Positions 1-459 of a DNA stretch of 459 bases are shown one piece after another. The notes under the pieces were generated by a model. The model was not told the DNA's origin. It was given only the letters and a program-made list of their open reading frames with translations, and ran no database searches. Origin of the DNA: Escherichia coli (lineage in GTDB: Bacteria; Pseudomonadota; Gammaproteobacteria; Enterobacterales; Enterobacteriaceae); assembly GCF_003334315.1 (NCBI RefSeq), contig NZ_QOWR01000133.1. The stretch is one strand, 5' to 3'. The position numbers and the translations under genes were made by a program. The stretch's first letter is position 1. Every line of letters begins with the position of its first letter.

Positions 1-459
1 TCTACTGTTGACTATTTGTGCCGTTATTTCTGGTGCAGAAGGCTGGGAAGATATAGAGGATTTTGGGGAAACACATCTCGATTTTTTAAAACAATATGGT
101 GATTTTGAAAATGGTATTCCTGTTCACGATACCATCGCCAGAGTTGTATCCTGTATCAGTCCTTCAAAATTTCACGAGTGCTTTATTAACTGGATGCGAG
201 ATTGCCATACTTCAGATGATAAAGACGTCATCGCAATTGATGGAAAAACACTCCGGCATTCTTATGACAAGAGTCGCCGCAAGGGAGCGATTCATGTCAT
301 TAGTGCGTTCTCAACAATGCACAGTCTGGTCATCGGACAGATCAGGACGGATGAGAAATCCAATGAGATTACAGCTATCCCTGAACTTCTTAACATGCTG
401 GATATTAAAGGAAAAATCATCACAACTGATGCGATGGGTTGCCAGAAAGATATTGCAGA
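1..459 (+). CDS. ISAs1-family (H-repeat-associated) DDE transposase, internal fragment; 5' and 3' ends lie outside the window. Reading frame 2: first complete codon at nt 2-4, last complete codon at nt 455-457.
   Basis: Seen in sequence: frame 2 is open for all 152 codons, whereas + frame 1 hits TGA at nt 100-102 and + frame 3 hits TGA at nt 9-11. The translation contains motifs I recognise from H-repeat/ISAs1 transposases: [27 protein letters not shown] and [11 protein letters not shown] in the N-terminal transposase-associated region, IAIDGKTLR (first catalytic Asp, codon nt 239-241) and ITTDAMGCQ (second catalytic Asp, codon nt 428-430). Spacing between the two Asp residues is 63 aa, consistent with DDE_Tnp_1-type (IS4-like fold) transposases. 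Recognition is from memory of the E. coli H-repeat proteins (YhhI-like); no database search was run. Gene symbol left blank because several near-identical paralogs exist and the copy cannot be assigned from 152 aa. Confidence 0.93.
1..459 (+). mobile_element. Interior of an ISAs1-family insertion sequence (H-repeat / ISEc1-like element); the element termini and terminal inverted repeats are not in the window.
   Basis: Inference from the CDS call: ISAs1-family elements are about 1.2-1.3 kb and consist essentially of a single transposase ORF, so a window wholly inside the ORF is wholly inside the element. Window GC is 189/459 = 41.2% (counted by hand), below the roughly 50% typical of E. coli-like chromosomes, consistent with a horizontally acquired element. 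Confidence 0.85.

Follow-up and report, generated by a model that had tools for sequence, protein, structure and literature searches.

Introduction

When a stretch of bacterial DNA encodes part of a transposase in which the catalytic residues are intact, the question arises whether the corresponding element can still move or whether it persists as a resident of the chromosome. This question is raised by a locus in Escherichia coli that was analysed starting from a stretch of 459 nt, in the following referred to as the window. The window lies within a gene of the H-repeat/ISEc1 type; both this element and its association with Rhs loci have been known since the 1990s.

Results

The window is an internal segment of a transposase gene

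Frame 2 on the plus strand is open from nt 2 to nt 457 (152 codons in the ORF scan of the 459-nt window) and the other two plus-strand frames are rich in stop codons. On the minus strand of the window all ORFs comprise at most 43 aa, which argues against a second gene, and an Rfam scan gave no RNA match inside the transposase ORF. A previous sequence-only reading of the window had described the 152 codons as free of frameshifts and premature stops and had placed Asp codons at nt 239-241 and nt 428-430; frame 2 is indeed open throughout, and GAT codons are read directly at both positions. The segment belongs to the transposase ORF of an H-repeat of the ISEc1 type (ISAs1 family). With window nt n corresponding to nt 5000+n of L002, which together with L001 matches the window exactly, the features in the window are the following:

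2..459, plus strand: internal segment of the transposase ORF (codons 30-181 and two bases of codon 182, of 378)
2..196, plus strand: helical N-terminal domain, C-terminal two-thirds (DDE_Tnp_1_assoc, PF13808; window residues 1-65, E 1.3e-23)
218..451, plus strand: DDE catalytic RNase-H-like domain, first part (DDE_Tnp_1, PF01609; window residues 73-150, E 2.9e-10)
239..241, plus strand: GAT, Asp109 in IAIDGK, first Asp of the DDE triad (window residue 80; context VIAIDGKT)
242..247, plus strand: GGA AAA, Gly110-Lys111 immediately after the first Asp (each 121/121 in the alignment)
356..367, plus strand: AAA TCC AAT GAG, Lys148-Ser149-Asn150-Glu151, KSNE motif opening the helix that follows the third core strand
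428..430, plus strand: GAT, Asp172 in TTDAMG, second Asp of the DDE triad (window residue 143; context IITTDAMGC)

The 152-aa fragment encoded by the window scores 226 bits (E 6.3e-67) against the NCBIfam model NF033564, 'ISAs1 family transposase', and thus exceeds on its own the curated equivalog cut-off of 70 bits; judged by sequence score, the family match is far above chance level. In the full protein, PF13808 covers residues 8-94 (E 1.6e-33) and is followed by PF01609 at residues 102-343 (E 5.8e-28), and the former, N-terminal domain is presumed to bind the DNA ends of the element. In many E. coli strains, chromosomal genes annotated as 'ISAs1 family transposase' match the window at 100% identity, and the RefSeq label of the window's gene is likewise this generic one and not 'ISEc1 family'. 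The score of 226 bits and the 100% matches to annotated genes both confirm the identification as an H-repeat/ISAs1 family transposase that had been made from the letters of the window. Therefore, the gene is a known H-repeat/ISEc1-type ISAs1 family transposase that is already annotated in RefSeq. A paper on the loss of type VI secretion (T6SS) that appeared to mention 'ISEc1' was dismissed, because the name occurs there only as part of longer IS names.

The complete gene is open and the element is full length

In L002 the ORF starts with an ATG at nt 4915 and extends without interruption to nt 6051 (378 codons), with the motif IRNHWHVENKLH downstream of the window. A start codon with a ribosome-binding site and an ORF of about 370-380 codons had been listed as features to confirm, and in the genomes matching the window exactly (L002 and L001) the ATG is preceded by AGGAG and the 378 codons are unbroken. 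The limits of the element were set by comparison with the canonical yhhI (K-12) and ydcC copies and correspond to L002 4771-6061, i.e. a full-length element of 1,291 bp with a single ORF. This is the size and architecture expected of the ISAs1 family (~1.2-1.5 kb, most of it taken up by a single ORF). The stop codon of the ORF overlaps the right terminal repeat. A promoter scan gave one 9/12 site upstream of the ORF (4873-4901); because the total number of sites was not above the shuffle expectation, we claim no promoter.

Conservation and predicted fold identify the catalytic triad

To place the two Asp residues of the window in the complete protein, the latter was aligned with 120 full-length representatives (35-54% identity) from 1.84 billion cluster representatives. 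D109 and D172 are each Asp in 120/121 aligned sequences, and E306 in the motif HWHVEN is Glu in 121/121. G110, K111, E151, K196, N198, R232, R236, H302, W303, H310 and D314 are invariant in this alignment, and the residues of the KSNE motif are conserved to different degrees (K 115/121, S 110/121, N 120/121, E 121/121).

In an AlphaFold2 model generated from the family alignment (pLDDT 95.1, pTM 0.92), residues 3 to 97 are all-helical, D109 is located within the first core strand (105-113), the KSNE motif is carried by a helix comprising residues 148-161, D172 directly follows the fourth strand (168-171), and E306 is located on a long helix (292-316) downstream of a beta-rich insertion at approximately residues 221-286. 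This predicted layout is the canonical one for DDE enzymes, with an RNase-H-like core and a Tn5-type insertion domain. In agreement with this, the best PDB matches of the model in Foldseek are the Tn5 transposase (E 1e-9, probability 1.00, TM 0.53), followed by piggyBac.

A profile search against PDB sequences gave only chance matches (E > 0.7), one of which was the Rhs-type protein YenC2, and comparison of the family profile with the validated Tn5 sequence by hhalign failed to link the two (probability 0.07). PF01609 was ruled out as a bridge to Tn5, as Pfam aligns Tn5 from residue 125 and misses D97, and a residue-by-residue match to D97/D188/E326 of Tn5 was not obtained by sequence methods. 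Because these sequence links to Tn5 failed, the catalytic assignment is based on conservation together with fold topology. On this basis, we accept D109 and D172 as the two Asp residues of the DDE triad, as the sequence-only reading had proposed (each 120/121 and in canonical positions in the model), and the conserved catalytic Glu that it had expected downstream of the window is E306 in HWHVEN (121/121).

The right terminal repeat is eroded

In the yhhI and ydcC copies, the canonical left end CAGGGAAAGAT and the canonical right end ATCTTGCCCTG form a 10/11 inverted repeat. The window's allele has retained the left end CAGGGAAAGAT unchanged. The right terminal 11 bp, compared at the same flank, ACTCTCCCC, form a series:

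ATCTTGCCCTG: canonical (yhhI, ydcC, ES5), 11/11
GTCTTACCCTG: ETEC4077, 9/11 relative to the canonical end
GTCTTACCCCG: WCHEC035123 and E32, 8/11 relative to the canonical end
GTAATACCCCG: the window's allele and the K-12 remnant, 6/11 relative to the canonical end

On the complementary strand, the right end of the window's allele reads CGGGGTATTAC, which corresponds to 6/11 matches to the left end and 6/11 matches to the canonical right end, and the family-typical tip CAGGG is changed to CGGGG. Matching terminal repeats beginning with CAGGG are therefore not present as a pair in the window's allele, in which only the left end is intact. DDE transposases in general depend critically on the tip positions of their terminal repeats. 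Descent of the element from the ISAs1 family is not in doubt and the feature that fails is a working pair of ends. The intermediates 9/11 and 8/11 in orthologous alleles show that the right repeat has eroded in place from the canonical state. Intact terminal inverted repeats, which would have been expected of a competent copy, are largely contradicted by this right end.

Target-site duplications of the ISAs1 family are 8-10 bp (ISfinder). No direct repeats were found flanking the yafV-locus, yhhI, ydcC, nrfB-locus and IncX4 copies, and the original target is not reconstructable. The sequence abutting the left repeat varies among strains and the right flank is constant. Likewise, the two flanks of the ydcC copy are adjacent, i.e. 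form an empty site, in 0/5,426 genomes. A target-site duplication, the other mark by which a mobile copy was to be recognised, is thus not detectable at the copies examined.

The insertion is old and fixed beside yafV

Both exact-match genomes that were opened (strain C and strain W5-6) have the gene at the same site, with the aspV-linked hcp-vgrG/Rhs (type VI secretion) island on one side and yafV, followed by ivy and fadE, on the other. The window is present with at least 99% identity in 848 complete-genome records. Moreover, nearly every E. coli genome contains several paralogues of the window with 95-99% identity, the median being 5 places per genome, and the highest-copy genomes have up to 11-18 places matching the element. 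A query of 1,716 nt that includes the locus-specific flanks has at least 99% identity in 839 complete-genome records, and therefore nearly all near-identical matches to the window represent one locus. The statements made here on ends and flanks hold for this yafV-locus copy, which is the source of essentially all near-identical window matches.

Of 5,426 complete E. coli genomes, at least 2,625 contain the full length of a 161-nt probe that spans the junction between the element and yafV; some of the remaining genomes have shorter junction remnants and some have none (e.g. O157:H7). K-12 MG1655 has the identical yafV junction, next to which the ORF is reduced to its final 288 nt. Because the junction is common to so many genomes, the insertion is old and not recent. 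In total, the copy is an old, fixed and vertically inherited insertion.

The orthologous alleles examined at the yafV site are annotated pseudogenes with 96.4-96.6% identity (93.8% in strain ES5), and their nonsense codons are located at positions 18, 93 or 322. Together with the 288-nt remnant in K-12, these stops bear out the earlier statement that many chromosomal copies are decayed. All pseudogenised alleles examined keep D109, D172 and HWHVEN (E306), and for this reason the intact Asp residues in the window are uninformative as to whether a copy is live or dead.

Substitutions suggest relaxed constraint in resident copies

The window's allele has four private changes, i.e. S99T, W311R, C322Y and D347E. 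Residue 311 is the fifth residue after E306 and is part of the signature HWxIENxLHWxLD on the catalytic helix; among the 120 representatives this position is W in 114, Y in 5, L in 1 and never R. Because the K-12 remnant also has R311, the W311R change is old within this allele lineage.

Pairwise comparisons of the window's copy with copies from other loci and with alleles of its own locus give a dN/dS of 0.05-0.11 (dS 0.10-0.23), with the exception of the nrfB-locus copy (0.23). By themselves, these values would suggest strong constraint. Among seven copies, the changes shared by at least two copies are 3 non-synonymous and 30 synonymous, and the private changes found in a single copy are 48 non-synonymous and 55 synonymous, which amounts to a non-synonymous excess among private changes (odds ratio 8.7, Fisher p 6e-5); the dN/dS estimated for the private branches of the seven copies sampled is ~0.26 and not 1. 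Private changes occur at invariant or near-invariant sites, as in the case of N198T in K-12 YhhI, K111T in ES5, S149F and E319K in ETEC4077, A154P in the ydcC copy and W311R in the window's allele. Such a substitution pattern would arise if the protein had been under constraint during the active period of the lineage and the constraint had been relaxed once the copies were resident; some constraint may remain, or copies still under constraint may recently have donated sequence by gene conversion. The alleles are mosaic in that the window's allele is, over its initial ~300 bp, almost identical to the ydcC copy and different from two orthologous alleles. This mosaicism points to gene conversion among paralogues, a process that could contribute to holding some ORFs open.

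Plasmid copies and published data on mobility

The element is matched by 26 of 72,556 plasmid records, many of which are megabase-sized 'plasmids' or very small contigs. Three of these records were opened as possible evidence of movement and none was convincing: one contains the chromosomal ansP-ydcC-nhoA region and is clearly misassigned, another is a non-mobilizable record with chromosomal-type neighbours, and in the third, an IncX4 record, the copy is frameshifted, its right end is damaged and there is no duplication.

According to the genome paper on E. coli W, H-rpt has not been seen to transpose (PMC3032704). In mobilome sequencing of K-12, ISAs1 is absent among the IS groups with a raised circle signal, and the same preprint states that such circles may be rarer (bioRxiv 10.1101/2024.07.17.603846). 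The ISAs1 family as such is mobile, because members such as ISPmar4 of Paracoccus have been caught as functional elements in trap-plasmid screens (PMC3281130). In addition, ISAs1 family members elsewhere affect neighbouring genes, as described in one report (PMC7096684).

Comparison with known systems

The closest relatives of the window's copy are the ISEc1/H-repeat copies of E. coli Rhs elements, with the K-12 paralogues YhhI, YdcC, YbfD and the yafF remnant. Like yhhI and ydcC, with which the ORF shares 96.9-97.0% nucleotide identity, the copy has a length of 1,291 bp, the left end CAGGGAAAGAT, a product of 378 aa, a stop codon overlapping the right repeat and an association with Rhs/VgrG loci. 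The K-12 remnant beside yafV is a truncated version of this very copy. From canonical ISEc1, the window's allele differs by its right repeat (6/11 as opposed to 11/11) and by S99T, W311R, C322Y and D347E.

The Tn5 (IS50) transposase of the IS4 family is the closest solved structure and shares the overall fold. In both proteins the DDE core is RNase-H-like, a beta-rich insertion separates the second Asp from the Glu, and the third residue ahead of the catalytic Glu is a Trp (W303 here and W323 in Tn5). By contrast, identity between the two is ~10% with no detectable sequence or profile similarity, the N-terminal domain is PF13808 here and PF14706 in Tn5, and the C-terminal dimerisation domain of the Tn5 type is absent here. 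The IS4 signature Y-(2)-R-(3)-E-(6)-K is absent around E306, where the residues are T-A-I-R-N-H-W-H-V-E-N-K-L-H-R-R-L-D with Ile at E-7, His at E-4 and Leu at E+7. A Tn5-like fold in a protein lacking the IS4 signature therefore points to a Tn5-type mode of working within a separate ISAs1 family. ISAs1 of Aeromonas salmonicida, IS1548 and ISPmar4 are similar to the E. coli element in NCBIfam/Pfam family, in having a single ORF and in size (~1.2-1.5 kb); they differ in that they show insertion polymorphism, whereas the E. coli H-repeat copies examined sit at fixed sites.

Discussion

Combining the data on the ends, the chromosomal site and the substitutions, we suggest that the copy is a resident H-repeat relic in which the ORF is still open and which is most likely unable to mobilise itself, and we consider this explanation probable. 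By analogy to Tn5, a DDE transposase of this kind would bind terminal repeats of the CAGGG type, and its triad would coordinate two metal ions, cut the ends of the element and join them to a target. In the resident copy, which is vertically inherited, the right terminal repeat has eroded in place, and the open frame would reflect an ORF that is unbroken so far and that has possibly been refreshed by gene conversion among paralogous copies. Self-mobilisation is unlikely because the right repeat is eroded, because W311R is close to the catalytic Glu and because the sister alleles are pseudogenes or a stub. We infer the Tn5-like chemistry from the analogy described above and the loss of mobility from the general behaviour of DDE transposases. 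Two observations fit this explanation less well: the exact protein with an intact ORF is found on at least 1,000 contigs, which is somewhat surprising if it is useless, and the private-branch dN/dS of ~0.26 in the seven copies is below 1.

The sequence-only reading had suggested a transposition-competent or recently acquired copy, i.e. an autonomous IS in which the transposase acts on its own two ends. A 378-codon ORF with a ribosome-binding site, a complete DDE triad, the full length of 1,291 bp and a perfect left end CAGGGAAAGAT would all be compatible with such a copy, as would the function of other ISAs1 family members, e.g. ISPmar4, in trap screens (PMC3281130). However, the right repeat matches at 6/11 with an altered tip, W311R is located within a conserved signature, neither a target duplication nor an empty site was detected, and the presence of the junction in at least 2,625 genomes argues against a recent arrival. 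Moreover, the element is nearly absent from real plasmids, H-rpt transposition has not been observed (PMC3032704) and ISAs1 has no raised circle signal (bioRxiv 10.1101/2024.07.17.603846). In view of these data, an autonomous or recent copy is very improbable, and the earlier proposal is not supported. Less improbable, although still unlikely, is that the element itself is immobile and that its protein is active in trans on H-repeat copies with good ends such as ydcC and yhhI. These two copies retain 10/11 inverted repeats and E. coli genomes have a median of 5 element-matching places on which a protein with an intact ORF and triad could act, and the low pairwise dN/dS indicates that the protein sequence has been kept. 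Bacterial transposases, e.g. that of Tn5, generally prefer to act in cis, which counts against this possibility. W311R may impair the enzyme, and the fixed flanks and the small number of plasmid copies give no sign of any copy moving.

Alternatively, the protein could be retained by the host in a domesticated form, e.g. for promoting the exchange of toxin/immunity cassettes beside Rhs/VgrG loci. The fixed positions adjoining these loci, the differing upstream cassettes that abut the same left end across strains, the pairwise dN/dS of 0.05-0.11 and an ORF that is intact despite an eroded terminal repeat could be explained in this way. Against this stands that the gene at this very locus is interrupted by nonsense codons in many strains, that K-12 has lost most of it, and that private changes hit invariant sites (N198T in YhhI, K111T in ES5) and are enriched for non-synonymous ones, as expected for decay in place and not for selection at the level of the host; also, the variation in upstream cassettes is explicable by homologous recombination with the repeat as a homology arm. 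Domestication is therefore a poor prospect, only marginally ahead of an autonomous copy. The same low standing as for the autonomous copy applies to the specific idea that H-repeat ORFs are kept by selection as a host-serving recombinase, e.g. one that swaps the cassettes ending at the left repeat; we give it hardly any credence. If true, it would explain why the ORF is open in hundreds of lineages despite the decayed right end.

The finding has little importance beyond correct annotation of the gene. It carries the lesson that mobility cannot be judged from intact catalytic residues within a short window. The informative features were located outside the window, i.e. in the terminal repeats, in the fixed junction and in a radical change near the catalytic Glu. 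The decay series of the terminal repeat together with the non-synonymous excess among private changes could provide a template for separating relics from live IS copies.

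Genomic context of the H-repeat element

At the yafV site, the H-repeat element is the border between a variable toxin-cassette region and the conserved chromosome. Comparison of the junctions in the chromosomal locus that matches the window exactly (L002, junction at 4771) and in the orthologous alleles L007, L008, L009 and L010 demonstrated that the DNA adjoining the left terminal repeat varies by strain, and that yafV is the unchanging right flank in these loci. Across strains, the left flank contains a VgrG-associated ORF, Rhs C-terminal tips or 'dsORF-h1'; in strain E32 it is a second, tandem H-repeat pseudogene, and in strain ES5 ICE-like genes are found at this position. 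The H-repeat region is also a recurrent target of other IS elements: (i) in strain C, an IS1A insertion (L001 3414-4111) lies upstream of the H-repeat in place of the vgrG side, and (ii) in strain 23CRST021 (hit H31), the locus is broken by a separate IS1A insertion.

Two features were identified immediately upstream of the element in L002:

L002, within 4519-4595: third, more diverged partial H-repeat left end, upstream of the intron fragment; 37 nt with 92% identity to 4780-4816
L002 4596-4770: group II intron fragment of ~160 nt, directly 5' of the element and outside the window; Rfam RF01999 group-II-D1D4-2 (81.8 bits, E 2e-16)

The intron fragment is flanked on both sides by the H-repeat left-end 14-mer CAGGGAAAGATCAC, with copies at 4596 and 4771. 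With the third, partial left end further upstream, the region of L002, therefore, contains nested or duplicated left-end remnants. The same intron fragment precedes the ydcC copy of O157:H7 (L005). The 'Rhs IS (= ISEc1-5)' has been described as a homing target of introns E.c.I2 and E.c.I9, and fragments of E.c.I9 have been described as persisting (PMC3522654); the intron fragment between H-repeat left ends fits both of these published observations.

Divergence among H-repeat copies

A whole-element alignment of L002, L003, L004 and L007-L010 revealed that the H-repeat paralogues are mosaic. Over the first ~300 bp, 4 sites separate the intact yafV-locus allele from the ydcC copy and 24 sites separate it from two orthologous alleles. 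The left ends fall into two sequence types, GATCACGTAACGCTG and GATCATCAGAAGTTC. On the basis of this alignment, the mosaic structure and the two left-end types point to recombination or gene conversion between H-repeat copies.

YhhI of K-12 is the reference intact ISEc1 transposase, yet its codon 198 (yhhI, L003 1648-2784) encodes Thr at a position that is Asn throughout the family alignment (121/121 sequences). Private changes at conserved positions are also found in other resident H-repeat copies (K111T, S149F, E319K and A154P). These changes suggest that, among the H-repeat ORFs classed as 'intact', several may be impaired in function.

Positions 171-218 of the transposase family profile (TIDAMGCQ...LKGNQ) gave a weak match to YenC2 (PDB 4igl_B / 9c4k_Q; E ~0.85-1.3), an Rhs-type toxin shell protein. 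The match is almost certainly due to chance; it is curious in view of the link of the H-repeat to Rhs loci.

Plasmid records

Among the PLSDB 'plasmid' records that contain the element, several consist of misfiled chromosomal sequence (CP054253.1 (L011), NZ_CP141089.1, NZ_OL790696.1 and others), examples being one record of 252 kb with ansP-ydcC-yddH-nhoA and others of 4.8-4.9 Mb. For chromosomal IS elements, plasmid counts require filtering of such misfiled chromosomal records.
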